From: Thermoplasmatales archaeon SG8-52-3
GTDB lineage: Archaea; Thermoplasmatota; E2; DHVEG-1
NCBI GenBank assembly: GCA_001595915.1
Contig: LSSG01000019.1
Span: 5,408 to 69,407 of the forward strand
Length of the DNA stretch: 64,000 nucleotides
Direction: 5' to 3'
This document shows, piece by piece, positions 7,334 to 63,806 of this stretch. Positions within the stretch are counted from its first letter, which is position 1, and each line of letters starts with the position of its first letter. Position numbers and translations under genes: made by a program. The notes under the pieces are model-generated. The model did not search any database. It worked only from the letters and a program-made list of their open reading frames with translations, and was not told where the DNA came from.

Positions 7334-8182
7334 ATGTCGAAAAGAAAGATTGTTAAAATTGATGAGGAAAAGTGTACAGGTTGTGGATTATGCATTCCAA
7401 ATTGTCCTGAAGGTGCAATTCAAATAATAGATGGAAAAGCTAGACTTGTTAGTGATATTTTTTGCGACGGTCTTGGTGCTTGTCTTGGACATTGCCCTGA
7501 AGGAGCAATTTCTACTGAAGAACGAGAGGCAGAACCTTATGATGAAAGAAAGACAATGGTAAATATTGTTAAAGCTGGGAAAAACACAATTATTGCTCAT
7601 CTAAATCATTTAAAAGATCATGGTGAAACTGAATATCTCAGGCAAGCACAAGAATATCTAGAAGAACAAGGTATTGAAATTAAATTAAAAGATGAAGAAT
7701 GTGGTTGTACACATGAACCTCATCATGCATGTCCTGGAGCGCAAATGAAGGATTTCTCAAATGAAAAAAAAGATACTGAGGGGGAGACAGAATCTAAAAG
7801 CTCTCAACTTAGACAATGGCCTATTCAACTTCATCTGGTACCACCATTTGCACCATATTTCCAAGGAAAAGATGTGTTGCTAGTTGCTGATTGTGTCGGT
7901 TATTCTATTGGTGATTTTCATAAAGATTATATCAAAGGTAGAAGTATTTCTATTGCTTGTCCAAAATTAGATTCAAATCAAGAAATCTACTTGGATAAAT
8001 TGATTAAATTGATAGATGGAGCAAAAATAAAAACCTTAACGGTTATGACAATGGAGGTACCATGTTGTAGTGGCCTACTTCATCTTGCAAAAAGAGCAGC
8101 TGAAAAAGCCACAAAGAAAATTCCTATAAAATCAATAGTTGTTGGAATTAAAGGGGACATTTTAAAGGAAGAATGGATTTAA
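7334..8182 (+). CDS. 4Fe-4S dicluster-domain protein with Cys-rich C-terminal domain. It is a putative Hcp-associated electron-transfer partner.
   Basis: CTGCGLCIPNCPEGAI…CDGLGACLGHCPEGAI, then a C-terminal VLLVADCVGYS…IACPKLDS…MEVPCCSGLLH. Function is inferred from adjacency to hcp. Confidence 0.65.
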   Translation: MSKRKIVKIDEEKCTGCGLCIPNCPEGAIQIIDGKARLVSDIFCDGLGACLGHCPEGAISTEEREAEPYDERKTMVNIVKAGKNTIIAHLNHLKDHGETEYLRQAQEYLEEQGIEIKLKDEECGCTHEPHHACPGAQMKDFSNEKKDTEGETESKSSQLRQWPIQLHLVPPFAPYFQGKDVLLVADCVGYSIGDFHKDYIKGRSISIACPKLDSNQEIYLDKLIKLIDGAKIKTLTVMTMEVPCCSGLLHLAKRAAEKATKKIPIKSIVVGIKGDILKEEWI

Positions 8183-8195
8183 GAGGTATGTAAAT

Positions 8196-8663
8196 ATGCA
8201 GAAAAAATGTTTTAAGGCAGGAGAAAAAGCACCTGATTTTTCTTTATTTGATCATAATGAAAAAGAGTTTAGATTATCTGATTTCAAAGGTAAAAGAGTG
8301 CTTCTTTCGTTTCATCCACTTGCTTGGACTGGAATTTGTTCAGAACAAATGAAATCTCTTGAGAAAAATTCAAAGGAATTTGAAGAATTAAACACAATTG
8401 CAGTAGGAATAAATGTTGATCCGATTCCGTCAAAAAAGGCATGGGCAGATAGTCTTGGTTTAAAAAATACAAAACTTCTTTCAGACTTCTGGCCACATGG
8501 AAAAGTATCAGATTTATATTTTTTATTTAGAGAAAAGCAGGGTTTTTCCGAGCGAGCAAATATAATTATCAATGAGAATCAAGAAATCGAATTTATTCGT
8601 ATATATGAAATTGGTGAATTACCGGATATTAATGAAATTCTAACATTTCTAAGAGAATTATGA
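8196..8663 (+). CDS. Peroxiredoxin (AhpC/TSA fold, AhpE-like active site)
   Basis: KAPDFSLFDHNEKEFRLSDFKGKRVLLSFHPLAWTGICSEQM, compared with the AhpE-type FPLAFTGIC motif. Confidence 0.8.
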   Translation: MQKKCFKAGEKAPDFSLFDHNEKEFRLSDFKGKRVLLSFHPLAWTGICSEQMKSLEKNSKEFEELNTIAVGINVDPIPSKKAWADSLGLKNTKLLSDFWPHGKVSDLYFLFREKQGFSERANIIINENQEIEFIRIYEIGELPDINEILTFLREL

Positions 8664-9385
8664 ACAATGGAATAGGAGATAGATTTCAAAAGGAAACAAA
8701 ATACTCTCGTTATTCAATGGTTGGAGGTAGTCTTGATTGGAGAAATCAACCAGAACCTTACAAGAGTTATCCAAATAGTAAGAAAATTAAACTTGAACCT
8801 CCAAAAGCTTTATCAAACATATCTCTAGATGAAGTTTTGAAAAAACGAAGAAGTATACGTAATTTTTCTGAAAAACCAATTACAAAAAAACAACTTTCCT
8901 ATTTATTATGGGCTTCAACTGGTATTCAAAGAAAAGAAATTGGATATGAATTTCGAACAGCTCCATCTGCAGGAGCACTATATCCAGTTGAGACATATTT
9001 GATAATTAATAGAGTTGAAAATATATCTAAAGGTGTTTATCATTATTCAGTAAAAGATCATCTTTTAGAGGAATTAAAAACTGGCGATTTTGGTATTAAT
9101 ATTTCAAGGGCTGCTTTAGAACAAGATATGTGTAATTCTTCTGCTTTTGTTGTTATTTGGACTGCTATCTTCAACCGTTCTAAGTGGAAATATGCGGAGC
9201 GTGCCTATAGGTATATATATTTAGATGCAGGTCACATTGCCGAAAATTTTGCCCTTGCATCAACAGGTCTTGGTTTAGGAAGTTGTCAAATTGCTGCATT
9301 ATATGATGATGAAGTAAATGAAATTATTGGCGTTGATGGAATTAATGAAAGTGTAATTTATATGAGTGTTGTTGGAAATTTGTAA
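8660..9385 (+). CDS. SagB-type dehydrogenase/nitroreductase-fold flavoprotein
   Basis: The ATGA start overlaps the peroxiredoxin stop. FQKETKYSR…WRNQPEPYKSYP…RRSIRNFSEKPITKKQLSYLLWASTGI…RTAPSAGALYPVETYL. Confidence 0.8.
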   Translation: MNNGIGDRFQKETKYSRYSMVGGSLDWRNQPEPYKSYPNSKKIKLEPPKALSNISLDEVLKKRRSIRNFSEKPITKKQLSYLLWASTGIQRKEIGYEFRTAPSAGALYPVETYLIINRVENISKGVYHYSVKDHLLEELKTGDFGINISRAALEQDMCNSSAFVVIWTAIFNRSKWKYAERAYRYIYLDAGHIAENFALASTGLGLGSCQIAALYDDEVNEIIGVDGINESVIYMSVVGNL

Positions 9386-49056: not shown

Positions 49057-50298
49057 TTAAATATTCATTTTGGAAGAAATTACCTCTGGATTAATAAAAA
49101 AATTATCATCTAATAATCTATTAAGAATGTTACTTACATCACTTCCTTTTTTCATTAAACTGTAAAAAGTTCCAGTATTTCTGATGGTGCCAATAAACTG
49201 AAGACCAACGATTTTATTGTTTTTTAATAAAATCTTTTTAGAGGTTTGTGGGGTAAATCTAGAAATGGTTTTACATTTTCCAATTTCTTTTGACGTTTGA
49301 CCCATTGCAACAATTGGTGTGTTGAAAACATCTAAAACATTTACTACCTCTGCACCAGTATATTCAATATTTTCTCCAGTAATATTTAAACCTGCAATTC
49401 TTCCTTGCTCAATAGCATTTGGCCATATAGCAAATGATCCTTTTCTTCCTTCAATTTGTTCCCAGACCTCAGTTATGTCTCCAGCAGCAAAAATATCTTT
49501 TTTATTTGTTTTCATTTTTGAATTTACTATAATTCCTTTATTTACCTTAATTTCAGAGTCTTTTACTATATCAGTATTTGGAGAAACACCTATTGCAAGT
49601 ACCACCATATCACATGATATTTTCTTATTATCAATTGAAACACTTTCAACAATTTTTTTTCCATTTACACTTTTTACTGTATTGTTTAAAATTAGTTTTA
49701 TTCCATTATTTTTTAGAATATCACTAACTTTTTTTGAAATATCTGAGTCGATCATTCTTGATAATATATACGGAAGCATTTCTACAATTGTTACTTTTAT
49801 TCCTCTTAATTTCAGCATCGTAGCGGTTTCTATACCCATGAAACCTCCACCAATCACTACAGCATGTTTTACACCTTTTTTTATATGATTAATTATTCCT
49901 ATTGCTGAATCAAGTGTACCCATAATATGCACACCCTCAAGGTTTATTCCTTTCATTTCTTTTAGAGTAATAGGTTTGGCACCTGCTGCAATTAACAACT
50001 TGTCAAAATTTATGCTATTTCCTTTTGAATCTATAATTTTTTTATTATCTGGAAGAATCTGAATTATTTCAGTATTTTTTACAAATTTTACATTATAACT
50101 TTTATAAAAATTTTTGTCAAATCGAAGAATTGTTGATTTATCAATTTCTCCTCCAATTAAGTTTGGTAAAGAACATGGAGAATAAGCAGGATATTTCTCT
50201 TTTGATATGATTGTTATATCTGATTTTTTATCAATTGAGCGAATGGCTTGAATGGCACTGATTCCAGCCCCACCATTTCCAATTATTACAAAGTGCAA
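49057..50298 (-). CDS. FAD-dependent pyridine-nucleotide-disulfide-family oxidoreductase
   Basis: FVIIGNGGAGISA…YSPCSLP…VVIGGGFMGIETA…FAAGD. Confidence 0.8.
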   Translation of the reverse strand: MHFVIIGNGGAGISAIQAIRSIDKKSDITIISKEKYPAYSPCSLPNLIGGEIDKSTILRFDKNFYKSYNVKFVKNTEIIQILPDNKKIIDSKGNSINFDKLLIAAGAKPITLKEMKGINLEGVHIMGTLDSAIGIINHIKKGVKHAVVIGGGFMGIETATMLKLRGIKVTIVEMLPYILSRMIDSDISKKVSDILKNNGIKLILNNTVKSVNGKKIVESVSIDNKKISCDMVVLAIGVSPNTDIVKDSEIKVNKGIIVNSKMKTNKKDIFAAGDITEVWEQIEGRKGSFAIWPNAIEQGRIAGLNITGENIEYTGAEVVNVLDVFNTPIVAMGQTSKEIGKCKTISRFTPQTSKKILLKNNKIVGLQFIGTIRNTGTFYSLMKKGSDVSNILNRLLDDNFFINPEVISSKMNI

Positions 50299-50319
50299 TA
50301 GAATCCCTTCTAAAAATCC

Positions 50320-51267
50320 TTAGGCACCTATATACTCTGGAAGTTCGGATCCTCTAATTAGAGCAACTATAGTTGAATTAATTGGTGTAGGAATGCCCTT
50401 TTTCTTCCCATAATTTACTATCTTACCATTAATAAAACCTATCTCTGTTGGATTCTTCTTTTCGATATCTACATGCATTGAGGTTCTATGATGACCTGCT
50501 TTATCAAGATAATTCATACAAAATTCTAAAAAATTATCATTAAAATGGTAACCATTTGCAGCAGCAACTTCTATTGCCTCACGTAATATTGCTTCAGATA
50601 GATTCCTAGTTTCTTTATAGTTCATCATCTGTTTCATGGTTCTTCTTGTTAATGCACAAACAGGACTTAGAGCTGCATTTAGTATAATTTTTTCCCATTC
50701 ATATTTTTTAATTTCTTTTGTAAAATCAGTTTCCAAATCTGATTTAGTAATTATAACTGCGAGTTCCTTTGCTTTCTTTTCAGCTGAAGAATCTATCATT
50801 CCGATATAATTTGGGGCATTAAAAAATGACATTCTGATTTTTCCATTATCTATAAGATTTCCAGCATAATTTACTACAATTCTAAGGGTATTTTCTTTTC
50901 CAAATTCATCAGCAATCAAATCTTCATTATCAAGTCCATTCTGTAAACTAATATAAGTTATTCCAGATTTTGTTACCTGTTTTAATAAAGAAAGGATTTG
51001 AGGAAGTACCGATGCTTTTACTGATATAAATAAAAAATTTATATCTTTATCAACCAACTCATCAATACCATAACAAATATTTTCTTCAGGAAATTTAACG
51101 TTTATATCTTTAAAACCTGTTATTGAAAGTCCATTTTTCTTAATTTCGTCCATATGTGCTTTTAGAATATCTATAAGTGTAACATCATGCCCAGCCTTTG
51201 CAAGGTGGGCAGCCATTATTGCACCAACAGGACCTGTACCTAAAATTCCAAATCTATATTTATCCAT
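50320..51267 (-). CDS. Ketopantoate-reductase (PanE/ApbA) family 2-oxo/hydroxy-acid reductase
   Basis: FGILGTGPVGAIMAAHLAKAGHDVTLI…SLQNGL…TSMHVDIEKKNPTEI. Confidence 0.75.
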   Translation of the reverse strand: MDKYRFGILGTGPVGAIMAAHLAKAGHDVTLIDILKAHMDEIKKNGLSITGFKDINVKFPEENICYGIDELVDKDINFLFISVKASVLPQILSLLKQVTKSGITYISLQNGLDNEDLIADEFGKENTLRIVVNYAGNLIDNGKIRMSFFNAPNYIGMIDSSAEKKAKELAVIITKSDLETDFTKEIKKYEWEKIILNAALSPVCALTRRTMKQMMNYKETRNLSEAILREAIEVAAANGYHFNDNFLEFCMNYLDKAGHHRTSMHVDIEKKNPTEIGFINGKIVNYGKKKGIPTPINSTIVALIRGSELPEYIGA

Positions 51268-52825
51268 CTTTTCTTCCCCCTGAATTATATCTTTCCCTTA
51301 AAATGCGATGTAAAATCTTTCCAGTGGGTGTTCGTGGCATCTCACTATCTTTTATGAAAATTACTTTTTTTGGTCTTTTATATCCACTTATTTTATTACG
51401 ACAAAAATCCAATATTTTTTCTTCAGAAATCTTGGTATTTTCTTTAGGTACAATTACTGCAGTAACTTGTTCACCCCACTTATCATGAGGTAGACCAATA
51501 ACAGCAACATCAAATACGTCTGGATGTGTGACTATAATCTCTTGAACTTCAGTTGGATATACATGTTCACCACCAGTGATTATCATGTTATCTTTTCTAT
51601 CAACTATGTAATAGAATCCATCATTATCACGCATTGCCATATCACCAGCAGAAAACCATTCACCTAAAAAGGAGCTTTTTGTTTTCTCGGGCATTTTATA
51701 GTATTCATCAAACATCATAGGGCCACGTGAATATAATTCCCCTATCTCATTAACACCAACTTCATTTCCATTTTCATCAAGTAATTTAACACAATCTGTT
51801 CCAACTGCTTCGTATCCAATGGAGCCAAGCTTTCTCATCTGGTCTTCAGGTTTAAGAAGAGTTACTAAACCTGCTTCAGTGGAACCATAAGCTTCATATA
51901 ACTCGACGCCAGGAAAAAATTTCATAATTTCTTTTTTCATAGATTTTGTTACAGGGGCTGATGAACAGAGCAATTTTCTAATTGAGGCTACATTACGTTT
52001 TTTTGCATTTTCTGGTGCATTTAATATTAAATTATAATGCGTTGGAATTAAAGATATATACGTAATTTTTTCCTTTTCAATGATTTCTAATATTTCTTCT
52101 GGTCTAAAATGTCGTGCAGGATGAATATATGCAGTTCCACCAATATATAAAAATAAAAATGTATAGAAAGTTGAATTTACATGATAAAGAGGCATAACAT
52201 TGAGACAGACGTCATGCTCATTAAATCCAAAATCAACTGAATTGATTAAAAAGAAGGCAATATATGATTCATGAGACCGGACAACACCTTTTGGTATGCC
52301 CGTTGTGCCAGATGTATACAGTATTATCCAAGTATCCTTACAATTAATATCTGCTTCAGGTTCTTCGTCTATAGAATCTTTTATAAAATCTTCATATTCC
52401 AAGTATCCTTTTATCTTATTTCCGACAACTATATATCTATCAGATCTTACATTTATCAAATCATCTTTTATTGAATTGACTAAAGAAACGAACTCTTCAT
52501 GAACAATAAATGCTTTAGCATCAGAGTTCTCCATTAAATTTACTATTTCTCTACCTACAAAACGAAAATGAACAGGTACAATTATTAGACCAGTTTTTGC
52601 TGCTGCAAGATATGCCTCAACAATCTCTATACTATTTTCTAAAAGGACTGCAAATTTATCGCCTTTCTTGAGTCCTAGAGAAAGAAGGCTATGAGATAGT
52701 TTATTTACTCTCTTATTTAACTCAGTATAAGTAAGACTTCTATCTTTTTCTTTCAAAGCAATTGTTTTTGGGAATTTCTTTGAATTCATCTTTATCATTT
52801 GACCAAGATTTAACCAGCAGGTCAT
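51260..52825 (-). CDS. AMP-forming acyl-CoA synthetase
   Basis: [16 protein letters not shown]…YGSTE…[35 protein letters not shown]…[11 protein letters not shown]. GGAGG lies upstream. The 3' end overlaps the next gene by 8 nt. Confidence 0.85.
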   Translation of the reverse strand: [521 protein letters not shown]

Positions 52826-52854
52826 AGTAGCTTTCCTCCATTCTATTTTAATGA

Positions 52855-54054
52855 TTATGATTTATTGCTTTCGAGTTGTTCTATGAAAGCTTCAATATTT
52901 GTCTTGAATTGTTCGTCAGATAGACATCTTAGATCATTAAAATCTCCATCTACAACTAAGCTTGGAATACCTGTTTCTTTTTCCAACCTTTGTGGCATAC
53001 CATAACGACAATTCGAATTATTTGAACATGATTTTGAATCATGATATATAATACCATCAATTTTAAAGAAATCAATCATTTTTTTCAGATATTTCTCTTT
53101 TGCTTCGTCTGCTCGAACAATAAATAATTCAGTATATGCCTTTGCCATGCTTCTAAAGGGATCATTTGCATCAAAATCTGTAAATATCCAACTATTACAA
53201 TATGTTGATGCAACAACACATGTTCTTTGAATAGCAAATAATTCAGAATGTGCTCTTAACCTTCCCCATATAGGCATACCATCCCAATACAATCTATATT
53301 TTTCATCTTCTACTGCTCCATCACAATTTTTTATCCTATCCTCAAGTTCTGAAATTAATAATTTATAATAATCAATAGCTTGTTTTGTCCCTCTTAAAAC
53401 TACTGCAGGTCCCATCTGGATACTTCCATCAAAAAACGTTAATGGTGAAGGTACATTAGAGGCTGTATCTAACACTTTTTTCCAAAGATCAGAACATTGA
53501 CGTGAAAGAGACAGTACCTTTTTTAATTCCATTTTATCAAAGTTATTACCTGATATTTTTTCAAAAGGACTAATTAAATTTTCCATTTGTTGAGCTATTG
53601 CTTTGATATGGTCATTTGTGATATCATTGATATTTCTAAATGTATGAATACCAAGCATTGGAACATTGAACTCTTTAGAATAAAATCTAAACCAATCCTG
53701 AACATCTCTACATTGATTAGTATTAAATACTAAAACATCAGGTTTGGGTATACTTTTTATACTTTCATAAGCTTTTGAAAGGGGTGTATATTTCTTTATG
53801 TATGCCCCAATATCCGAAGTAAGATATGAACAAACCTCAGGGGAATAACCAATTGCATTTGCATAAGGTATCATATCTGTTGCTACTCTACTTGCTCCAA
53901 GCATTGCACTATGATTTTCAGGAAAATAGACATGGAAACCAAAACTTCTTAATATTTCTGCAGGACCAACACTTGAGCACCAGGCAACCTTTTCCTTATC
54001 TGTTTTTGTAGCAGAATCAAGATCATTATAATAATTGGCCATTATCTTTTTCAT
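52855..54054 (-). CDS. Orphan HgdA-like subunit of the 2-hydroxyacyl-CoA dehydratase / benzoyl-CoA reductase / double-cubane-cluster protein family
   Basis: EKVAWCSSVGPAEILRSFGFHVYFPENHSAMLGA parallels the HgdA N-terminal region …EKVGWSSSKFPCELAESFGLHVGYPENQAA (as recalled). Conserved Cys occur (VCSYLTS, QCRD, YHDSKSCSNNSNC). No HgdB-type partner is adjacent. Confidence 0.7.
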   Translation of the reverse strand: MKKIMANYYNDLDSATKTDKEKVAWCSSVGPAEILRSFGFHVYFPENHSAMLGASRVATDMIPYANAIGYSPEVCSYLTSDIGAYIKKYTPLSKAYESIKSIPKPDVLVFNTNQCRDVQDWFRFYSKEFNVPMLGIHTFRNINDITNDHIKAIAQQMENLISPFEKISGNNFDKMELKKVLSLSRQCSDLWKKVLDTASNVPSPLTFFDGSIQMGPAVVLRGTKQAIDYYKLLISELEDRIKNCDGAVEDEKYRLYWDGMPIWGRLRAHSELFAIQRTCVVASTYCNSWIFTDFDANDPFRSMAKAYTELFIVRADEAKEKYLKKMIDFFKIDGIIYHDSKSCSNNSNCRYGMPQRLEKETGIPSLVVDGDFNDLRCLSDEQFKTNIEAFIEQLESNKS

Positions 54055-54197
54055 CTCTCTTGTTGCTTCGAATCTTTTACGAGATGACTTTTCATCAGCG
54101 ATATTATCTCCCCCGATCTGATAATGGCTTTAACAGATAGTAAACCCAAATAAAGATTGAACTTATTATTTTTTTGTGTTTTTTCAGTTTTGAGCAT

Positions 54198-55640
54198 TCA
54201 ACTAATATTCTTACTTCTTATAATTTCTTTTCCAGCTTCTTTTGCTTCATTAAATGATAAAATATATTTTAAACCATTTCTTAGTAAGTTAAATTCTTTC
54301 CGCAAGAGAATCTTAAAGATTTGTTCAAACATATAATAAGGTCTAAAATAAAAAGATGTAAATGCTTTTGTGGTATAATGGATTAATTCATCCTCTGTAA
54401 AATTACTGAGATTGTGACTTTTGTCTGCAAGCACCTCATACTGATTTGGTTTTATCTTTTTATTTTTCACAGCTTCTACCCATAGAGCAGATCCCATCCT
54501 ATAAATCAAAGGAACAAAATTGACCCTGTCAAGTGGAAGAGAACGGGCAAGTTTTATTGTATTTTCAATATGTTTATCAGTCTCCATAGGAGCACCAATA
54601 ATAAATGACGCCCCAATAAAAAATTTCATTTCTCTTGCTAATTTTACAGTCTTTCTAATTTGTTGAAGAGTTATATTCTTGTTATAAAAATCAAGAACAT
54701 CTTGATTTCCAGATTCAAGTCCATAAAAAATATATTTAACACCTGCCTTTTTCATTTTTAAGTAGAGGTCCTTCTCAGCTGTATCAACCCTAGCTCCTTG
54801 AATAAGTAAATCAACATTTATATCTGATTCTAGAAGCATATCAAATATTTTATGAGCTCTTTTTTTATCTGCTAGAAAGTTGTCGTCAACTATTACAATC
54901 GATTTATATATGTCACTTATTTCTTGAATCTCTTTTATTACATTTTCTGCCGACCTCATCCGAAAACTCCAGTTCTTGATAATATTACCATATCTACTAC
55001 AAAAACGACAATGATATGGACAACCTTTACTTGAGATAAAATTTGTAACTTTCTTTTTAAATAAATATCCAAAAGAAATTGTACTATAATCATATTTATC
55101 AACTAGATGTCTTGCTGGGAATGGTATCTCATCTAAATTTTCAATTACTTCTAACTGCTTTCCTGAACGAATCAAATTTTTTTCTTTATAAAAAATACCA
55201 TTAATATTTGCTAGCTGTTTTTTTCCCTCTAAATATTTTGATATGTCAAGAATAACATTTTCCCCCTCACCTGCTACACTGATATCTGCATGAGGAATAT
55301 CATTTAATGATCGTTTTTGAAGAAAAGTACAATGTGGTCCACCAATAATCAATGTTATATCTGAATCGATTTCCTTTATCAATTTTGAGATATCTGCTGC
55401 AGGTACGCAATCATCTGTATAAACAGACATTCCCACAGCATCACATGAATTCAATGATTTTTTTAATCTATCTTTTGTTATTTTTTCTGCAAAATAATCA
55501 AGAATTTCCACCTTATGGCCTTCTTTTTCAAGAGATGCTCCAATATAAAGTAATCCCAAAGGTGGGAGATTGAGAGATTGTTTATTCAGAGACTGATTAT
55601 TTTCTTCTCGGAATGCTGGTCTCAGAAGAAGAAATTTCAT
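54198..55640 (-). CDS. B12-binding-domain radical SAM enzyme, paralog A
   Basis: N-terminal B12-type Rossmann region: LLLRP…PPLGLLYIGASLEKEGHKVEILD…IIGGPHCT. Radical SAM motif: SSKGCPYHCRFCSRY. Confidence 0.85.
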   Translation of the reverse strand: MKFLLLRPAFREENNQSLNKQSLNLPPLGLLYIGASLEKEGHKVEILDYFAEKITKDRLKKSLNSCDAVGMSVYTDDCVPAADISKLIKEIDSDITLIIGGPHCTFLQKRSLNDIPHADISVAGEGENVILDISKYLEGKKQLANINGIFYKEKNLIRSGKQLEVIENLDEIPFPARHLVDKYDYSTISFGYLFKKKVTNFISSKGCPYHCRFCSRYGNIIKNWSFRMRSAENVIKEIQEISDIYKSIVIVDDNFLADKKRAHKIFDMLLESDINVDLLIQGARVDTAEKDLYLKMKKAGVKYIFYGLESGNQDVLDFYNKNITLQQIRKTVKLAREMKFFIGASFIIGAPMETDKHIENTIKLARSLPLDRVNFVPLIYRMGSALWVEAVKNKKIKPNQYEVLADKSHNLSNFTEDELIHYTTKAFTSFYFRPYYMFEQIFKILLRKEFNLLRNGLKYILSFNEAKEAGKEIIRSKNIS

Positions 55641-55715
55641 ATAATCTACTCCCCGAATTAAATATTATCATGAAAATCTAAGATATATAACTTTTTATTA
55701 AAAAAAATATAAAAA

Positions 55716-57164
55716 TTATTGTTTTGCCTGAGGATTTATTTTTTTGAAGGTTCCCATTTCCCGTTTCATTGAAAAAAGAAGTTTAAGTCCAGAATAAAGC
55801 AAGGTATAGTCTTTTCTAATTAAATTTCTAAATATTTGACTTATCATATATGTTGGTCTGTAATAAAAACGTTGAAATGCATCAAGGGTAAAGTCCATTA
55901 GTTCTTTTTTTGTGAAATTTCCAAGACCATGCTCAGAATCAGCAAAAAAGAATATTTCATCAGTATCTTTTTGTATTCTGTTATCTTCTACAGCCTCATT
56001 CCATAATTGAGAACCTTTAATATATCTCAATGGCCCAAAACCTGCAAAATCTAGAGGAAGTGAACAGGCAAATTTTATTGTGTTTTCAATATGCTCTTTT
56101 GTTTCCATTGGAGCACCTAAAATGAAACTACCCATTGTAATAAAATTCATTTTTCTACTCAATTTTACTGCATTTCTTATTTGAGGGAGAGTAGTTCTTT
56201 TGTTATAAAAATCAAGAACATCCTGATTTCCAGATTCAATTCCAAAAAATATAATTTTTACTCCTGCTTTTTTCATTTTTTTATAGAGTTCTTTACTTGC
56301 GGCATCAACTCTAGTACCATAAATCCATAGGTCAATATCCTTTCTCATCTCTATAAGTCCATCAAATATTATATGCGCCCTTCTGTTATCTGCAAGAAAA
56401 CTGTCATCAACAATGTTTATTGTTTTATATTTTTCATTAAGCTCTTCAAATTCCTTTAAAATGTTCTCAGCTGACCTTTGTCTAAATGTCCATTCATCAA
56501 AAAAATTGTTATATCTCGCACAAAATCTACATTTAAATGGGCATCCTCTACTGGTTATTGTTGAAGTTACAGTTTTTCTTAGTTTAAAACCAAATGGAAA
56601 ATCACCATAATCATATTTATCAACTAGATGTCTTGCTGGAAAGGGTAAATCATCTAAATTTTCAATAATTTGTAGGGGTTTTCCTAGTTTTATATTTCCA
56701 TTGTTTCTATAATAGATGCCATTAATATCTTCTAATTTCTTTTTTCCTTGAAAATATTTCACTAAATCAAGAATGACATGCTCTCCTTCACCTACTACAC
56801 TAATGTCTGCCAATGGTATATCCTGTAATGATTGTTTTTGTACAAATGTACAATGAGGTCCACCAATTATTTGTGGAATATCTGAATCAATTTCTTTAAT
56901 TGTTTTTGAGATATTATTGTATGGAATAAAATCAATATCACTACATACAGTCATTCCAACAGCATCAGTTTTTAATAGTGTGTTTTTTAGTTTTTCTTTT
57001 GAAATATTTTCCATACAAAAATCAAGAATCTCAACAGTATGTCCTTCATTTTCGAGTATTGCCCCAATATAAAGCAATCCAAGCGGGGGAAGAGTAGAAG
57101 GATCTAGTAACAAATTTTTTGTAATATTTTCGTAAATTCCAGGTTTAAGAAGAAGAATTTTCAT
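55716..57164 (-). CDS. B12-binding-domain radical SAM enzyme, paralog B
   Basis: PPLGLLYIGAILENEGHTVEILD…IIGGPHCT…TSRGCPFKCRFCARY. It is colinear with paralogs A and C over the full length. Confidence 0.85.
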   Translation of the reverse strand: MKILLLKPGIYENITKNLLLDPSTLPPLGLLYIGAILENEGHTVEILDFCMENISKEKLKNTLLKTDAVGMTVCSDIDFIPYNNISKTIKEIDSDIPQIIGGPHCTFVQKQSLQDIPLADISVVGEGEHVILDLVKYFQGKKKLEDINGIYYRNNGNIKLGKPLQIIENLDDLPFPARHLVDKYDYGDFPFGFKLRKTVTSTITSRGCPFKCRFCARYNNFFDEWTFRQRSAENILKEFEELNEKYKTINIVDDSFLADNRRAHIIFDGLIEMRKDIDLWIYGTRVDAASKELYKKMKKAGVKIIFFGIESGNQDVLDFYNKRTTLPQIRNAVKLSRKMNFITMGSFILGAPMETKEHIENTIKFACSLPLDFAGFGPLRYIKGSQLWNEAVEDNRIQKDTDEIFFFADSEHGLGNFTKKELMDFTLDAFQRFYYRPTYMISQIFRNLIRKDYTLLYSGLKLLFSMKREMGTFKKINPQAKQ

Positions 57165-57230
57165 TTGAACCAGTTACTCTCTTGAAAATAGGATAAATAT
57201 TAGTTATTTAAATGTTATATATTATCTATT

Positions 57231-58661
57231 TTATCCATCTGGATTACTTTTTTTAATAGGTGTTTTTCCCCATTTATTTATTATTGTCAAATATTTTAAA
57301 CCGTTTAATAGTAGTCGAATATCATTTCTTAATAATGACCTATAAATCTGTTTAAAGATATAAATTGGTCTAAAATAAAAAGCTTTATAAGCATCTATTG
57401 TAAAATCTATTAATTCCTTTTTTGTAAATTTTCCGAGAGTATTATCTTTTTCAGCAATAACTGCATATTCATTTGGTGAAATTTTTTTATTTTTTACAGC
57501 TTCCATCCATAATGAAGATCCAGTTAAGTATGTTAAAACTCCAAAATTCGCAAGATCTATTGGTAAAGAACAAGCAAATTTAATGGTGTTTTCAATTTGC
57601 TTTTTTGTTTCGATAGGTGCTCCAAGTATAAAAGAAGTATAAACAAAAAAATTCATTTTTCTAGCAAGTTTTATTGCTTTTTTTATTTGATTTAAATTGA
57701 TATTCTTGTTATAAAAATTAAGAATATTCTGATTTCCAGATTCAAGGCCATATAGAATGGTTTTTACTCCTGCTTTTTTCATTTTTTTATATAAATTTTT
57801 ATCTGCTGTATCAACCCTTGCTCCTTCAATAAAAAATTCCATATCGATATTAGAATCTAGTATCATGTCAAATATTTTATTTGCTCGTTTCTTATCAGCT
57901 AAAAAATTATCATCTACAATCACAACAGAATCATATTTTTTATTTATTTCCCTTAATTCATTTATTACATTCTCTGCAGATCTAACTCTAAATCTCCAAT
58001 CCTCAATAACGTTACTATATTTAGAGCAAAAACTGCATGAAAAAGGGCAACCTCTACTAGAAATTAGAGCTGTAACATTATTCATTATCTTATAATACCA
58101 GGGTGAGATACCATATTCATATTTTTCAACAAGATGTCTTGCGGGAAATGGTAAAGAATTTAAATCTTTGATTATCTTTGGAGGTTTTCCTTGTTTTATT
58201 AAGCTTTTTTTTCTATAATAAATGCCATTTATATCTGATAACTTTTTTTCACCATTCAAATAATTGGCGATATCTAAGATTACTTGTTCACCTTCTCCTA
58301 TTACACTGATATCAGCATTTGGTATGTTTATTAAAGACTGTTTTGGAAGAAAAGAACAATATGAACCACCAATAATTATTGGAATTTCGGGAGTTATTTT
58401 TCTAATTTTTTTTGAGATATCATTTACTAATTGAAAATTATCGATAAATGTTATTCCAACTGCATCAGATGAGTTTAATGAGTTTTTTAATTTATCAAAT
58501 GAAATGTCTTTAACTAAATAATCAAGAATTTCAACCTTATAACCCTCTTTTTCTAAAACAGCTCCCAGATATAATAGACTTAATGGAGGATGTGTCATCG
58601 GAAAAGAGATGATAGGTTTATCTTTAAGTCTAGCTGCTGGTCTTATTAGAAGAAATTTCAT
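57231..58661 (-). CDS. B12-binding-domain radical SAM enzyme, paralog C
   Basis: PPLSLLYLGAVLEKEGYKVEILD…IIGGSYCS…SSRGCPFSCSFCSKY. Confidence 0.85.
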   Translation of the reverse strand: MKFLLIRPAARLKDKPIISFPMTHPPLSLLYLGAVLEKEGYKVEILDYLVKDISFDKLKNSLNSSDAVGITFIDNFQLVNDISKKIRKITPEIPIIIGGSYCSFLPKQSLINIPNADISVIGEGEQVILDIANYLNGEKKLSDINGIYYRKKSLIKQGKPPKIIKDLNSLPFPARHLVEKYEYGISPWYYKIMNNVTALISSRGCPFSCSFCSKYSNVIEDWRFRVRSAENVINELREINKKYDSVVIVDDNFLADKKRANKIFDMILDSNIDMEFFIEGARVDTADKNLYKKMKKAGVKTILYGLESGNQNILNFYNKNINLNQIKKAIKLARKMNFFVYTSFILGAPIETKKQIENTIKFACSLPIDLANFGVLTYLTGSSLWMEAVKNKKISPNEYAVIAEKDNTLGKFTKKELIDFTIDAYKAFYFRPIYIFKQIYRSLLRNDIRLLLNGLKYLTIINKWGKTPIKKSNPDG

Positions 58662-58812
58662 TGTCTACCTTACCTCCCATTTTCAAATCTGATTTAAGAT
58701 TTAAATAATTACCTAAAGAGAAAAATACCAAATAAAATCATAAAATGCCAAAAATGATATACAGCTAATTATATCCATTTTTTAAAATTACATTATCATA
58801 TTTAGTGAAAAT

Positions 58813-59595
58813 ATGCTAGATAATGAATATTATGCAGGTATTGACGTTGGTACATCTTATATAAAAGTTGTAATAATTGATAACAAAAACAAGATACTAG
58901 GATCGTTTGTTGATAGAACAGGATCCGATCTTAAAAAATCAATAAAAGTAGTTTATGAAAATGCTTTGAGCTCTGCAAAAATTTCTGAAAAAAATTTTAA
59001 ATCTATTGTTGCTACAGGTTTTGGTAGAGAAAATGTCTCTTTTGCAGATGGTATAATAACCGAAATTAGCTCTCATGCAAAAGGTGCTTATCATTATTTT
59101 CCAAGAAAGATAATCGTTATTGATATTGGGGGACAAGATACAAAAATTATAAAAATTGATGATAAGGGTAAGATTCAAGGCTTTAAAATGAATAGAAAAT
59201 GTGCAGCAGGTACCGGTTCTTTTCTAGAGGAAATTGCATATAAACTCAATATTCCAATAAATGAAATGAATACTTTAGCTGCAAAATCTGATAAAGAGAC
59301 AGCATTAAGTAGCTTTTGTACAGTTTTTGCATCAACTGAGATTATTACGAGAATAAAGGAAGGAGAAAGAATTGAGGATATGGTTAAAAGTGCTTTTGAA
59401 TCAATTATTAGAAGAGTCATCGAAATGGACACATTAAAAGGTGAAGTTATGGTCTCTGGAGGTGTGGTTGCATATAATGATATCATTTTAAAAATTCTAG
59501 CAAAGCAAGTTGGAAAAGATATCTTAAAACCTCCAAAACCCCAGTTATGTGGAGCTATTGGTGCAGCTTTATTTGCAAAGGATTTAAAATCCTAA
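58813..59595 (+). CDS. BcrAD/BadFG/HgdC-family ATPase (archerase-type activator)
   Basis: YAGIDVGTSYIKVVII…IDIGGQDTKIIKIDDKGKIQGFKMNRKCAAGTGSFLEE…FCTVFASTEI…VSGGVVAYN. Confidence 0.85.
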   Translation: MLDNEYYAGIDVGTSYIKVVIIDNKNKILGSFVDRTGSDLKKSIKVVYENALSSAKISEKNFKSIVATGFGRENVSFADGIITEISSHAKGAYHYFPRKIIVIDIGGQDTKIIKIDDKGKIQGFKMNRKCAAGTGSFLEEIAYKLNIPINEMNTLAAKSDKETALSSFCTVFASTEIITRIKEGERIEDMVKSAFESIIRRVIEMDTLKGEVMVSGGVVAYNDIILKILAKQVGKDILKPPKPQLCGAIGAALFAKDLKS

Positions 59596-60047: not shown

Positions 60048-60989
60048 ATGTGGAATTATCATTCATTAGACTATGATTATCCGCCCTATCGACCACCTAA
60101 TGAGGCAGGGTCTGCTCTAATTAGGGCATCTAGAGGTTGTCCATGGAATAGATGTCTTTTTTGTACAATGTATAAAACACTAAAATTCCAACCAAAATCA
60201 AGTGAAGAAGTATTAAAAGATATTGATAAGGCAGCAAAAATATATGCTAGAGCTAAAACCATATTTATTGCAGACTCAGATAGCCTTGTTATGAAGGATA
60301 TTGACGATATAATAAAACACATAAAACTTCGTTTTCCTTATGCAGAACGAATTACATCTTATGCGAGAGCTAAAACCTTAATGAAGTTAGGTATTGATAA
60401 ATTAAATAAAATTAAAAAGGCAGGTCTCACGAGGGTTCATGTGGGTCTTGAATCAGGTGATAAAAAAACATTAGAATTTTTAAAAAAAGGTTCAACACCT
60501 AAAGAAATGATTGAAGGTGGAAAAGTAGCAAAAGAGGCAGGACTTGATCTTTCATTTTATATTCTTATAGGTGCTGGTGGAAAAAAAAGATTAAAAGAAC
60601 ATGCAATAGAGTCAGCAAGAGTTTGTAATATAGTAAAACCGGATTTCATTCGTTTAAGGACTCTTGTTGTTCAGCGTGGTTCACTTCTAGAAGAAAAAAT
60701 GAAAGAAGGTAAATACAATCCAACTTCGCCCGTTGAAAAATTAAAGGAAGTAAAGATATTTTTAGAAAATCTTGATGTTAAAAAATGTGAGCTTGCATCT
60801 GATCATTTCACTAATTACATCTGGGTAGGAAGTAATATTGTTTATAGGGGAATTTATGGAGTTTTACCCAAAGATAAAAAAGATATGTTAGGTATTTTAA
60901 ATCAAACTCTTAAGTTCTTAGAAATAACTGATGGTGAGATTCTTGATGCTACAATTTTATATGAAAGAGGAATGATTAATTCTCTTTAA
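60048..60989 (+). CDS. Radical SAM protein with atypical CX4CX2C cluster motif
   Basis: PPNEAGSALIRASRGCPWNRCLFCTMYK is read from GGT TGT CCA TGG AAT AGA TGT CTT TTT TGT. Downstream are GLTRVHVGLESGD and a TIM-barrel-like remainder. Confidence 0.75.
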   Translation: MWNYHSLDYDYPPYRPPNEAGSALIRASRGCPWNRCLFCTMYKTLKFQPKSSEEVLKDIDKAAKIYARAKTIFIADSDSLVMKDIDDIIKHIKLRFPYAERITSYARAKTLMKLGIDKLNKIKKAGLTRVHVGLESGDKKTLEFLKKGSTPKEMIEGGKVAKEAGLDLSFYILIGAGGKKRLKEHAIESARVCNIVKPDFIRLRTLVVQRGSLLEEKMKEGKYNPTSPVEKLKEVKIFLENLDVKKCELASDHFTNYIWVGSNIVYRGIYGVLPKDKKDMLGILNQTLKFLEITDGEILDATILYERGMINSL

Positions 60990-61935: not shown

Positions 61936-62595
61936 ATGGTAACTATATCACATATCGTCACGAAATTGATAAACGACAATATTTATTTGCAAGAAGCAAT
62001 TGGAAAAGGGATAGCATCTTATGGATCAGTTGCAAAAAAATTAAAACCTGATATTGAAGGGGAATTAAACAAAGAAGTCGCCCATTATGCAATAGTTGCT
62101 GCAATTCGGAGGTATTCTGAAAAGATGAACTATCGATTTCACGACATTAAATTTGATGCAAATACTTCTGAAGTGAATTTAAAGACAAATGTTATGGATA
62201 TAAATATACTTAGAAGTAATACTCTTTTTGACAAATTAAAAAGGATATATGATATAATACAATTTGAAAAGGGTGATATATTACATATCATCTATGGTAA
62301 GAATTCCTTAAGTATTGTTACAAATGAACGATACAAGGAAAATATTTGTCAATTTTTGAGGGATGAAAATATTACTAATATTGAAGAAAATCTTGTTTCA
62401 CTATCTTTTACAATTGATAAGGGTTTAGTTGATAGAGCAGGAGTATTGTTTCAAATAGTAAGAAATTTTGCTTGGGAAAATATAAACATAATAGAAGTTA
62501 TTTCAATTGATTTAGAAATAACATTTATTGTTGATGTAAAAGATGCAGTTAGAGGATATAAAGCACTTCAGCGACTAATTATAAAACCAACTTAA
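61936..62595 (+). CDS. ACT-domain-containing protein of unknown function
   Basis: The C-terminus VSLSFTIDKGLVDRAGVLFQIVRNFAWENINIIEVIS is ACT-like. The start is ambiguous (TTG 61927 or ATG 61936). Confidence 0.5.
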   Translation: MVTISHIVTKLINDNIYLQEAIGKGIASYGSVAKKLKPDIEGELNKEVAHYAIVAAIRRYSEKMNYRFHDIKFDANTSEVNLKTNVMDINILRSNTLFDKLKRIYDIIQFEKGDILHIIYGKNSLSIVTNERYKENICQFLRDENITNIEENLVSLSFTIDKGLVDRAGVLFQIVRNFAWENINIIEVISIDLEITFIVDVKDAVRGYKALQRLIIKPT

Positions 62596-63806
62596 TTTTT
62601 GCTTTTTAAAAATTTGTCTCTAATTTTTAAATATAACAATCGTCTAATCATCTTCTTTCTGCAGGTCCGCGCATTTAATCTACCTATTATTGCATCTACA
62701 GAATATTCGCTTAGTTTGTCATCTTTACAAATAATATCAATAAATTTTTCATTTTCTTTTCCCCAAAGATCAGAAATTTTGTAAAGTAATTTTAAGTCTT
62801 TTCCAAAATCTTTATACCAATTTTTTTGATATTTTGATAAAAACTTTTCACTTGTGTTATTTTTTTCTAAAGCTCTTGTGATAACTTCTGCAGCAATTTC
62901 ACCAGATGCCATTGCATGAAAAATACCCTCACCAGTGACAGGATTTGCAAAACCAGCAGCATCACCACAAATAATTACTCTATCTGAATATGTTTTTTCA
63001 AGAGGACGGGTTGGCAATGCTGCTCCTCTGATTCTCCCAATCTCAAAATCTTCAGGTAATACCTTATCTTTTTTGAGAATTTTTAAATATTCAATATATT
63101 TTTCCTTGATGGTTTTTTTATTTTTTTGGTTGTGAATTGCCTGCCTAAACTCTGTAACACCAATATTAATATGTTCCTTTTTTGGAAATACCCACCCATA
63201 ACCTGCAGATTTATTTACCTTGAAATGTATATGACACCTTCTTGTTTCTCCTAAATATCTGTCAAGTGTTTTTTGATTCACATTATATTCTTCAAAAACA
63301 CACATACAAATATTTTTATAGTTTTTACATAGTCCAATTTTTTTGGCAATTGTACTCCATATTCCATCTGCACCAATAACAATATCTGATTCAAAAGTAG
63401 TTTTGTCATCAAGTAGGATTTTTGCTGAGTTATTTGAAATTTTTATATCAATAACAGTTTTTTTATCGATGAATTTAGTTCCAGAATTAATTGCTAATTT
63501 TACTAATTGGTTATCAAATTTTTTCCTTAATATCATAGCAATAAGGGGTTCATCTCTTTGAAATTCCAATTTATATTTTAGAGTTGGTGAATATGCAGAT
63601 GCTGAATATGAATAAGATTCAATAAAATCATCATTAATATAGGGAAATCTATTAAATACCCTTACAGGAAGTCCACCACCACAGGGTTTATCTCTTGGAA
63701 ATTTATCTTTATCTAAAAGAAGTACTTTAATTCCCTTTTCTGATAGAAATTTAGCAGCAGTTGAACCAGCAGGTCCTGCACCTACAACTACAACATCATA
63801 TTTCAT
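62592..63806 (-). CDS. Geranylgeranyl-reductase-family FAD-dependent oxidoreductase
   Basis: MKYDVVVVGAGPAGSTAAKFLSEKGIKVLLLDKDKFPRDKPCGGGL…IGADG…VIICGDAAGFANPVTGEGI. Confidence 0.85.
   Translation of the reverse strand: MKYDVVVVGAGPAGSTAAKFLSEKGIKVLLLDKDKFPRDKPCGGGLPVRVFNRFPYINDDFIESYSYSASAYSPTLKYKLEFQRDEPLIAMILRKKFDNQLVKLAINSGTKFIDKKTVIDIKISNNSAKILLDDKTTFESDIVIGADGIWSTIAKKIGLCKNYKNICMCVFEEYNVNQKTLDRYLGETRRCHIHFKVNKSAGYGWVFPKKEHINIGVTEFRQAIHNQKNKKTIKEKYIEYLKILKKDKVLPEDFEIGRIRGAALPTRPLEKTYSDRVIICGDAAGFANPVTGEGIFHAMASGEIAAEVITRALEKNNTSEKFLSKYQKNWYKDFGKDLKLLYKISDLWGKENEKFIDIICKDDKLSEYSVDAIIGRLNARTCRKKMIRRLLYLKIRDKFLKSKN

Follow-up and report, generated by a model that had tools for sequence, protein, structure and literature searches.

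Three consecutive genes for class-B (B12-binding) radical SAM enzymes, c1, c2 and c3, occupy part of a 64,000-nucleotide stretch of DNA from Thermoplasmatales archaeon SG8-52-3 (assembly GCA_001595915.1, contig LSSG01000019.1). This whole stretch, referred to here as the window, lies on contig C19 of a 1.9-Mb metagenome-assembled genome (MAG) that is 79% complete. The genes are separated by gaps of 75 bp (c2–c1) and 66 bp (c3–c2), and are arranged as follows, in window positions.

54198-55640, minus strand: c1, 480 amino acids (aa), intact open reading frame (ORF), class-B radical SAM, motif CPYHCRFC
55716-57164, minus strand: c2, 482 aa, intact ORF, class-B radical SAM, motif CPFKCRFC; the most strongly constrained of the three
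57231-58661, minus strand: c3, 476 aa, intact ORF, class-B radical SAM, motif CPFSCSFC; the variable end of the array

The B12-binding domain (Pfam PF02310) scores above the gathering threshold in all three proteins (E 2.9e-19 in c1, 6e-15 and 1.6e-15 in the other two), as part of an architecture that includes a radical SAM domain (PF04055; E 1e-24 to 3e-25, 3.4e-25 in c1), and the three cysteines of the CxxxCxxC motif are invariant in 75 relatives. For c2, an AlphaFold model built from a 75-sequence alignment (predicted local distance difference test, pLDDT, 88.6; predicted template-modelling score, pTM, 0.87), was matched by Foldseek to MgmA/QCMT (9CCB), TsrM, OxsB, AprD4, CysS and TokK (E 1e-17 to 4e-22, TM 0.6-0.69). 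Domains, motif and fold therefore make the trio class-B radical SAM by architecture, and the binding and use of cobalamin is predicted; AprD4 has a B12-like domain and makes no use of cobalamin. The C-termini of all three are cationic amphipathic helices (hydrophobic moment 0.53-0.66, net charge +2 to +4), which fits peripheral membrane binding of the kind described for the lipid enzymes Cgm and Ted, as far as such a property can be predicted.

The initial annotation held that the three genes are diverged paralogs of class-B radical SAM type, colinear over their full length and with more than half of their residues identical, and that all three keep the CxxxCxxC motif. This is borne out by a three-way MAFFT alignment of 486 columns with few short gaps, in which pairwise identity is 58% for c1/c2, 58% for c1/c3 and 55% for c2/c3, and ~42% of the columns are identical in all three. 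The shared sequence blocks it listed serve as a consensus for c1 and c2, but c3 departs from several of them (PPLSLLYLGA, IIGGSYCSF, GAPIET). It had also placed the greatest divergence after the B12 domain and in the C-terminal tails; both regions vary (the former at residues ~72-80, after strand 3 of the B12 domain), but residues 1-20, 181-200, 261-280 and 401-420 are equally variable.

Origin and maintenance of the array

Maximum-likelihood trees place the trio within a fully supported clade of 24 sequences that is split in two: a c2 clade, which takes in the single-copy genes of loci L002, L018, L053, L019 and L021, and a c1 + c3 clade, which takes in L010-L013 and L052. The copies are thus not mutual closest relatives. 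Constraining the trio and its orthologs, a grouping that was defined after the first tree had been seen, to a single clade costs 181 log-likelihood units, and the approximately unbiased (AU) test rejects it (p = 3e-8). Orthologs also occur singly and dispersed. The closed genome CP070798 carries a c2-type gene (L002) and a c3-type gene (L013) ~680 kb apart, and the closed genome CP070712 carries a single c1/c3-type gene (L052) at the syntenic site, beside the same activase gene that flanks the trio. Together, the trees, the AU test and the dispersed single orthologs show that older lineages, at least two of them (c2, and c1 + c3), were brought together into the array within one genus. Both the trees and the AU test reject a lineage-specific triplication of recent date, and the tandem triplication of the initial annotation, if understood as a single event, is not supported.

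The order c3-c2-c1 is found again in locus L007 (MAG CSMAG_1140) and on contig C46 of the same assembly, and locus L009 begins at c2. A 152-kb Joint Genome Institute (JGI) contig, L001, carries c2 and c1 only, with no c3 at the syntenic locus; a 210-aa sulfotransferase gene (PF17784; L001:9179-9811) stands in the place of c3, on the opposite strand. Contig C46 (8.5 kb) is colinear throughout with window positions 49975-58690, flanking genes included, at 82-84% nucleotide identity, and carries a second c3-c2-c1 trio together with the HGD-D, ligase and ApbA genes that neighbour the trio here. This contig most likely comes from a related strain that was binned with the genome and does not represent a true second locus, so that the 12 family matches in the assembly (the trios on C19 and C46, two genes on C12, and one each on C39, C53, C32 and C49) would reduce to ~9 family copies in the genome.

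Each copy has been kept by purifying selection, as shown by the ratios of nonsynonymous to synonymous substitution (dN/dS, Nei-Gojobori) among orthologs, which are 0.09-0.17 for c1 (C46, L001, L007, L008 and L009; 71-88% identity), 0.05-0.08 for c2 (87-91% identity) and 0.10-0.14 for c3 (78-85% identity). Synonymous sites are saturated between the paralogs (pS 0.59-0.63, dS 1.2-1.4), making paralog ratios unreliable, and ortholog pairs alone were therefore used. As all copies are also intact in every locus seen, the earlier statement that no copy is decaying holds. Only 6 positions are fixed differently among the three ortholog groups, against 145 that are fixed identically, so the sequences carry no clear signature of specificity. 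A sliding-window comparison across window positions 50000-58900 gave a mosaic, with c3 and the HGD-D/ligase genes nearer to L007 and c2-c1 nearer to C46 and L001, which suggests recombination between related populations inside the array, at its c3 end; this is also the end that varies in gene content.

Putative transcription signals were read by eye and by conservation. An A/T box resembling an archaeal TATA element lies 35-45 nt upstream of each ATG, and each gene has a GGGAG-type Shine-Dalgarno (SD) sequence.

58662-58812, minus strand: divergent intergenic region upstream of c3, with TATA-like TTATTTAAAT (58699-58708) and SD-like GGGAGG (58673-58678); conserved in L007
57165-57230, minus strand: c3–c2 spacer, with TATA-like TTTAAATA (57205-57212), 41 nt upstream of the c2 ATG, and SD-like AGAGAG (57177-57182)
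55641-55715, minus strand: c2–c1 spacer, with a terminator-like oligo-T run (55700-55715), TATA-like TTATATAT (55683-55690) and SD-like GGGGAG (55649-55654)

The elements in the c3–c2 and c2–c1 spacers are kept in C46, L007 and L001 although their flanks diverge, which suggests three separately initiated genes rather than one obligatory operon, and each gene appears to have its own predicted promoter. Nor do the observations point to paralogs that act in sequence, as the initial annotation had suggested: L001 has c2 and c1 only, CP070712 has a single copy, and each gene has a TATA-like box of its own.

An uncharacterised family and its association with isoprenoid-type genes

The trio belongs to a subfamily that is without a characterised member. 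Among NCBIfam models none reached its cut-off against c1, c2 or c3; the best, namely BchE, HpnJ, the Sden_1168/PhpK-type P-methyltransferases, ApyD and HpnR, gave E 1e-36 to 5e-49 and 125-168 bits against cut-offs of 480-750. For c1, c2 and c3 respectively, BchE (TIGR02026) scored 153, 164 and 158 bits (curated cut-off 481) and HpnJ (TIGR03471) 152, 149 and 168 bits (curated cut-off 578). The methyl-coenzyme M reductase (MCR) glutamine C-methyltransferase model TIGR04014 gave 82-98 bits (cut-off 360), and the model for C-methyltransferases of ribosomally synthesised and post-translationally modified peptides (RiPPs), TIGR03975, 90-96 bits (cut-off 282). Against PDB sequences the radical SAM core alone matched, with 9CCB, identified as MgmA/QCMT (PMC12931638), and AprD4 (6FD2) at E ~1e-14 to 1e-15. 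The family thus does not group with any well-characterised family, and the 'BchE' labels on its relatives are over-annotations; the 'BchE' and 'YgiQ' labels widespread on these proteins are uninformative, whatever their function proves to be.

Distribution is narrow. In an even sample of 301 Thermoplasmatota genomes the family was found in 30 (E <= 1e-80), all 30 in the same class, and it is thereby shown to be confined to one class of sediment Thermoplasmatota, putatively of Marine Benthic Group D (MBG-D) type; since the best 5 candidates per genome were scored, copy numbers in this sample are lower bounds. Five to eight copies per genome occur only within the same genus, and the other genera of the taxonomic family have 0-3. 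Relatives carry names such as 'Thermoplasmatales archaeon' and 'Thermoplasmatota archaeon', SG8-52-4 among them. Family members also appear under the labels 'Petrotogales bacterium' (P0032), 'Bacteroidetes bacterium' (a 5-kb contig, L022) and 'Methanobacteriota archaeon' (L034/L039), and because these sequences nest among Thermoplasmatota, mis-binning or mislabelling is likely in all three cases. The genome has an unusually high radical SAM load, with 52 matches in 1.9 Mb, more than 20 of them apparently B12-type, and seven radical SAM genes within 20 kb on contig C81 (11-31 kb). This set includes ~9 DUF4070-type B12-radical SAM genes and two of RiPP type.

To survey gene context, ORFs were called in ~50 non-redundant family loci, and the proteins encoded within 4 kb of family members were clustered. 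The recurring neighbours were as follows.

Two-lipocalin protein of ~430 aa (AttH-fold hydratase): 8 loci, by Pfam CrtC and fold
LPG_synthase_TM flippase-like membrane protein: 8 loci, PF03706 E 2e-38
DUF4070-type B12-radical SAM protein: 11 loci, Pfam
Small SAM methyltransferase: 14 loci, Pfam
PaaK/F390-synthetase-like ligase: 15 loci, NCBIfam
ApbA reductase: 5 loci, Pfam
UbiA prenyltransferase: 5 loci, closest models archaeal prenyltransferase and digeranylgeranylglyceryl phosphate synthase (DGGGPS), E 1e-38 to 1e-28, under cut-off

The two-lipocalin protein matches Pfam CrtC in five of its eight members (best E 3e-5), and its model (pLDDT 70) was matched by Foldseek to AttH (2ICH; E 7e-13, TM 0.68) and to kievitone hydratase (7A0T; E 4e-10), on which grounds it is assigned to the AttH/CrtC-type hydratases, a family that hydrates isoprene double bonds; a profile of these proteins found no match among PDB sequences. 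All four AttH-like genes of the genome adjoin radical SAM genes, and three of the four adjoin members of the trio's family. The pairing is not seen at the trio itself. Earlier-branching members of the family show it in 8 loci, and also in four of the sampled genomes (G265, G141, G239 and G004), where a family gene and an AttH-like gene lie 0-6 kb apart. Across the sample, AttH-like genes are present in 26/30 family-positive and 18/271 family-negative genomes (Fisher 1e-21, kinship ignored), and within one taxonomic family in 20/23 versus 5/14 (p = 0.003, kinship ignored).

In this genome the full set of these neighbours occurs in a conserved ~18-kb cluster on contig C12 (C12:477-18748), which contains two family genes, two AttH-fold hydratases, a DUF4070 B12-radical SAM gene, a SPASM radical SAM gene, two PaaK-like ligases, a sulfotransferase, a flippase-like protein, methyltransferases, an ApbA reductase, a DGGGPS-like UbiA and a glycosyltransferase; the gene set recurs in L015, L017, L020, L037, L039 and L043. 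On C32 the family paralog sits among three flippase-like and three methyltransferase genes, beside an archaeal mevalonate operon (GHMP kinase, UbiD-type decarboxylase, AcnX). A Grs-type homolog adjoins two family genes in L041, and lies within 8 kb of family genes in L043/L044.

A reference point for such contexts comes from CHARACTERISED lipid enzymes: the Bathyarchaeon B12-radical SAM enzyme Ted desaturates the tails of glycerol dialkyl glycerol tetraethers (GDGTs), the overlapping AttH-like gene hgs encodes a hydroxy-GDGT synthase that hydrates the product, and grs adjoins (Garcia et al., bioRxiv 10.1101/2025.10.20.683597). The ted gene was found through primer GLC372 on JGI contig L086 (6080-7924), its C-terminus (...DKFMGD) agreeing with primer GLC373. 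The overlapping hgs gene spans 7917-8951, and there is a radical SAM gene for a 571-aa protein upstream. The latter has two ~510-aa homologs per Sulfolobales genome (34-35% identity, E 1e-59 to 1e-65), which by sequence would fit GrsA and GrsB. The genome studied here encodes both the tetraether synthase Tes (NF045702, 567 bits against a cut-off of 450; contig C50, ~17.0-18.6 kb) and a Grs-like protein (contig C75, ~2.6-4.2 kb; 46% identical to the L086 gene), and on this basis the organism probably makes GDGTs, possibly with rings.

Since earlier-branching members of the family adjoin AttH-fold hydratases, DGGGPS-like UbiA, flippase-like proteins, a Grs homolog and a mevalonate operon, and Tes is encoded in the genome, the favoured reading, somewhat short of probable, is that the trio may modify isoprenoid ether lipids, methylating or desaturating them through radical C-H functionalisation, with the copies differing in position, substrate or condition. 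Each enzyme would reductively cleave S-adenosylmethionine at its [4Fe-4S] cluster to give a 5'-deoxyadenosyl radical. The target of this radical would be an isoprenoid ether lipid (of archaeol/GDGT type, or a lipid-linked precursor), from one of whose unactivated sp3 carbons it would take a hydrogen. With cobalamin assisting, the substrate radical would go on either to receive a methyl group, giving methylation, or to lose a second hydrogen, giving desaturation as in Ted. The three enzymes would differ in position, substrate class or condition of use, with no obligatory three-step relay.

A bolder form of this reading, and an unlikely one, is that the family may be a second lineage of cobalamin radical SAM enzymes, separate from Ted, that functionalises the saturated isoprenoid chains or the glycerol backbone of archaeal ether lipids, with c1, c2 and c3 installing different modifications. 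Candidates would be desaturation followed by AttH-type hydration, or C-methylation, for example yielding butanetriol or pentanetriol tetraethers, for whose backbone methylation no enzyme was named in the archaeal lipid-enzyme literature surveyed. Were it true, sedimentary MBG-D archaea would be the source of specific, so far orphan, sediment lipid biomarkers. 

Few archaea in marine sediments are as abundant as the sedimentary Thermoplasmatota of MBG-D/Thermoprofundales type. According to PMC11868695, no measurement of their membrane lipids has ever been made. Because tetraether lipids of archaea serve widely as proxies for environment and palaeoclimate, producers and modifications that are missing from the record affect how those proxies are read. 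The trio offers compact candidate genes (~1.45 kb each) for the unrecorded lipid chemistry of abundant sediment archaea, from a family that is lineage-specific, strongly conserved, and tied to isoprenoid-type genes through earlier-branching paralogs in related genomes.

Several observations weigh against a lipid role. The lipid inference is carried over from paralogs that are 42-57% identical, because the trio's own neighbours are not lipid genes; no lipid gene is its immediate neighbour in the window, the nearest being a GGR-family flavoprotein gene ~4 kb away (62592-63806; Pfam GGR_cat under cut-off), and in other genomes the c1/c2/c3 sub-clade is flanked mostly by genes for secreted beta-helix proteins. 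The conserved cluster holds a sulfotransferase, a glycosyltransferase and PaaK-like ligases, which would fit a glycan or small-molecule pathway equally well, and the co-occurrence statistics are uncorrected for phylogeny. The AttH-like neighbours (~430 aa) showed no sequence similarity to Hgs (344 aa) by hhalign and are not Hgs orthologs. Nor does the likeness to Ted reveal the chemistry: the reaction type is unreadable from sequence at 30% identity, the family lies at least as near to the BchE or HpnJ profiles as to Ted, and Ted and the methylase Gmm are themselves equally far apart (bioRxiv 10.1101/2025.10.20.683597).

Neighbouring genes and alternative explanations

Downstream of c1 lies a run of metabolic genes on the same strand, and divergent from c3 a stand-alone activase gene, the only one of its kind in the genome.

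49057-50298, minus strand: Pyr_redox_2 flavoprotein (Pfam)
50320-51267, minus strand: ApbA/PanE-type reductase (Pfam)
51260-52825, minus strand: AMP-forming CoA ligase (Pfam)
52855-54054, minus strand: HGD-D-type dehydratase subunit (PF06050, E 1e-65), downstream of c1
58813-59595, plus strand: HgdC/BcrAD-type ATPase (activase), stand-alone (BcrAD_BadFG, E 3.5e-47; TIGR00241, 221 bits, over the cut-off of 125)

These genes would by themselves form a coherent route from 2-oxoacid through 2-hydroxyacid and acyl-CoA to enoyl-CoA. As the sole stand-alone activase, the ATPase is most simply taken as the activator of the HGD-D protein, wherever that is encoded; it lies beside the single family gene in CP070712 (L052) too, and a smaller possibility is that it supplies low-potential electrons to the radical SAM or cobalamin centres. 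Module content differs between relatives, as in L085 (CP070712:1613000-1631000), where the ApbA gene aligns with no more than residues 1-227 of its window counterpart and is not followed by a Pyr_redox_2 gene. Beyond the activase, a further radical SAM gene (60048-60989) with a CX4CX2C motif (CPWNRCLFC) has a 41%-identical paralog on C71; in every related locus, CP070712 included, it is accompanied by the activase, an 82-aa exported protein and a MoaD/ThiS-like protein.

This setting raises the alternative of one acyl-CoA/2-hydroxyacid pathway that would unite the trio with the HGD-D, CoA ligase, ApbA, flavoprotein and activase genes, for example through iterative C-methylation followed by activation, reduction and dehydration. 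The genes are co-directional and close, with the activase divergent, and their order is kept in four related loci; earlier-branching members of the family, too, repeatedly have ApbA-type reductases and adenylate-forming ligases nearby, and the sulfotransferase in the L001 array has a counterpart in the C12-type cluster. Such a pathway is nevertheless unlikely, given how readily its parts come apart in relatives. The HGD-D/ligase/ApbA block lies ~485 kb from the radical SAM/activase locus in CP070712 and 63 kb from it in CP070724, and in CP070798 family genes are present and HGD-D was not found. The HGD-D gene is split in L001 (13111-14307; ORFs of 161 aa and 230 aa) and in C46 (4494-4700; window 54000-54100) is missing ~100 bp at its 5' end, including the start, whether through gene decay or assembly error, while the adjacent radical SAM genes are intact in both. 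A 143-bp spacer with conserved elements of its own separates c1 from HGD-D, and the ApbA protein of the window is just 27% identical to that of C12. The HGD-D module is thus shown to have been inherited separately, its link to the array being recent and loose, and functional coupling between the trio and the HGD-D/ligase/ApbA operon was judged unlikely from the closed relatives and the broken HGD-D copies. Under the favoured lipid reading the operon would be a separate module that stands beside the array by chance in this sub-lineage; its separateness would hold even if the lipid reading were wrong.

Doubtful, though less so than a shared acyl-CoA pathway, is a role in which the trio would act on a small molecule other than a lipid, or on a sugar or head group linked to a lipid, tailoring a glycan, a glycolipid head group or a secondary metabolite by ring contraction, methylation or sugar dehydration, as in HpnJ, GenK and AprD4. 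HpnJ is among the best profiles (E 1e-44 to 5e-49), AprD4 is among the closest solved structures, and the conserved clusters hold a glycosyltransferase, a sulfotransferase, PaaK-like ligases and a phosphodiesterase-like gene; however, all profile scores fall far under the family cut-offs, and the most specific recurring neighbours are of isoprenoid type (AttH-fold hydratase, DGGGPS-like UbiA, Grs homolog, mevalonate operon). Modification of a protein or peptide, either RiPP-like precursors or the secreted beta-helix/NosD-like proteins encoded beside members of the c1/c2/c3 clade, is very unlikely. Methylation of proteins and peptides is a known activity of class-B radical SAM enzymes (MgmA/QCMT, PoyC), and a NosD/beta-helix gene lies within 4 kb in 8/11 non-syntenic clade loci, but with 154 such regions 43% of the genome is equally near one, so that this association barely exceeds background (p = 0.05) and was set aside as such. 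No precursor-like small ORF was seen beside the trio in the ORF list, in which no dedicated search was made, and against the weak scores of the trio with TIGR03975 stand true members elsewhere in the genome, on C66 (311 bits) and C20. Least credible is that the copies are functionally redundant, and either retained for dosage or in the course of being lost. The variable copy number, with L001 lacking c3 and CP070712 having just one copy at the syntenic site, and the handful of group-specific positions would suit this explanation, yet every copy remains intact despite saturated synonymous divergence between the paralogs, ortholog dN/dS stays at 0.05-0.17, and the three lineages persist across several genera.

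Relationship to characterised radical SAM enzymes

Among the characterised archaeal enzymes compared by sequence, the tetraether desaturase Ted (DRO69_02625) is the closest. It has the same N-terminal B12 domain and radical SAM core over ~440 aa, aligns with c2 over 445 aa at 30% identity (E 4e-35), and has the LPFPARHL motif in common with it. Its best matches in the genome are the trio's family (30-31%, E 1e-31 to 3e-39), ahead of the DUF4070 family, and it has the same NCBIfam neighbour profile as the family (HpnJ 1e-48, BchE 3e-47). The hydratase genes beside earlier-branching family members, in some loci accompanied by a Grs homolog, also recall the Ted/Hgs arrangement. In contrast, Ted falls outside the family clade (100% support, stem of 1.2 substitutions per site) and has ~170 extra C-terminal residues, c2 having no counterpart of Ted residues ~440-614; the match is weaker and shorter than the thresholds its authors set for homologs (E <= 1e-100, >= 500 aa), the trio being 476-482 aa long, and the trio has no hydratase neighbour in the window.

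The initial annotation had also mentioned a lipid role of GrsA/GrsB type. A lipid role remains the best-supported reading, by way of the gene context of the family, whereas homology to Grs was not found. GrsA and GrsB, the GDGT ring synthases, resemble the trio as paralogous radical SAM enzymes that tailor one lipid class at different ring positions, but they form a separate, remotely related family, to which the Grs-like gene on C75, outside the window, belongs. The methylases of glycerol monoalkyl glycerol tetraethers (GMGTs) and GDGTs, Gmm, Cgm and Pgm, were compared by description only; they too are class-B enzymes, act in tetraether tail methylation, and are predicted to be peripheral membrane proteins. 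The cgm gene is often near CoA-ligase and aromatic-degradation genes, and the trio is likewise near a CoA ligase here. Cgm homologs differ, again by description, in exceeding 495 aa and in occurring in thermoacidophilic Thermoplasmata, Sulfolobaceae and Thermococci rather than in the class of the trio. A profile of the family found nothing better than E 1e-9 in three Sulfolobales genomes, in which carriage of cgm was not established.

BchE (anaerobic Mg-protoporphyrin IX monomethyl ester cyclase) and HpnJ (hopanoid ring contraction) provide the top curated profiles (E 1e-44 to 5e-49), near full length, but at 149-168 bits they remain far under their cut-offs; no archaeon is known to make bacteriochlorophyll or hopanoids. 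The solved class-B structures (MgmA/QCMT 9CCB, TsrM 6WTE, OxsB 5UL4, TokK 7KDY and CysS 9N1B, together with AprD4 6FD2) share the fold of the trio, but at 14-22% identity, with unrelated substrates and different C-terminal domains. With Ted outside the clade and carrying extra residues, Hgs dissimilar to the AttH-like neighbours, and matches in Sulfolobales weak, the family is, judged by its sequences, neither Ted nor Grs, but a sister-level family within the same BchE/HpnJ-like class-B sequence space.

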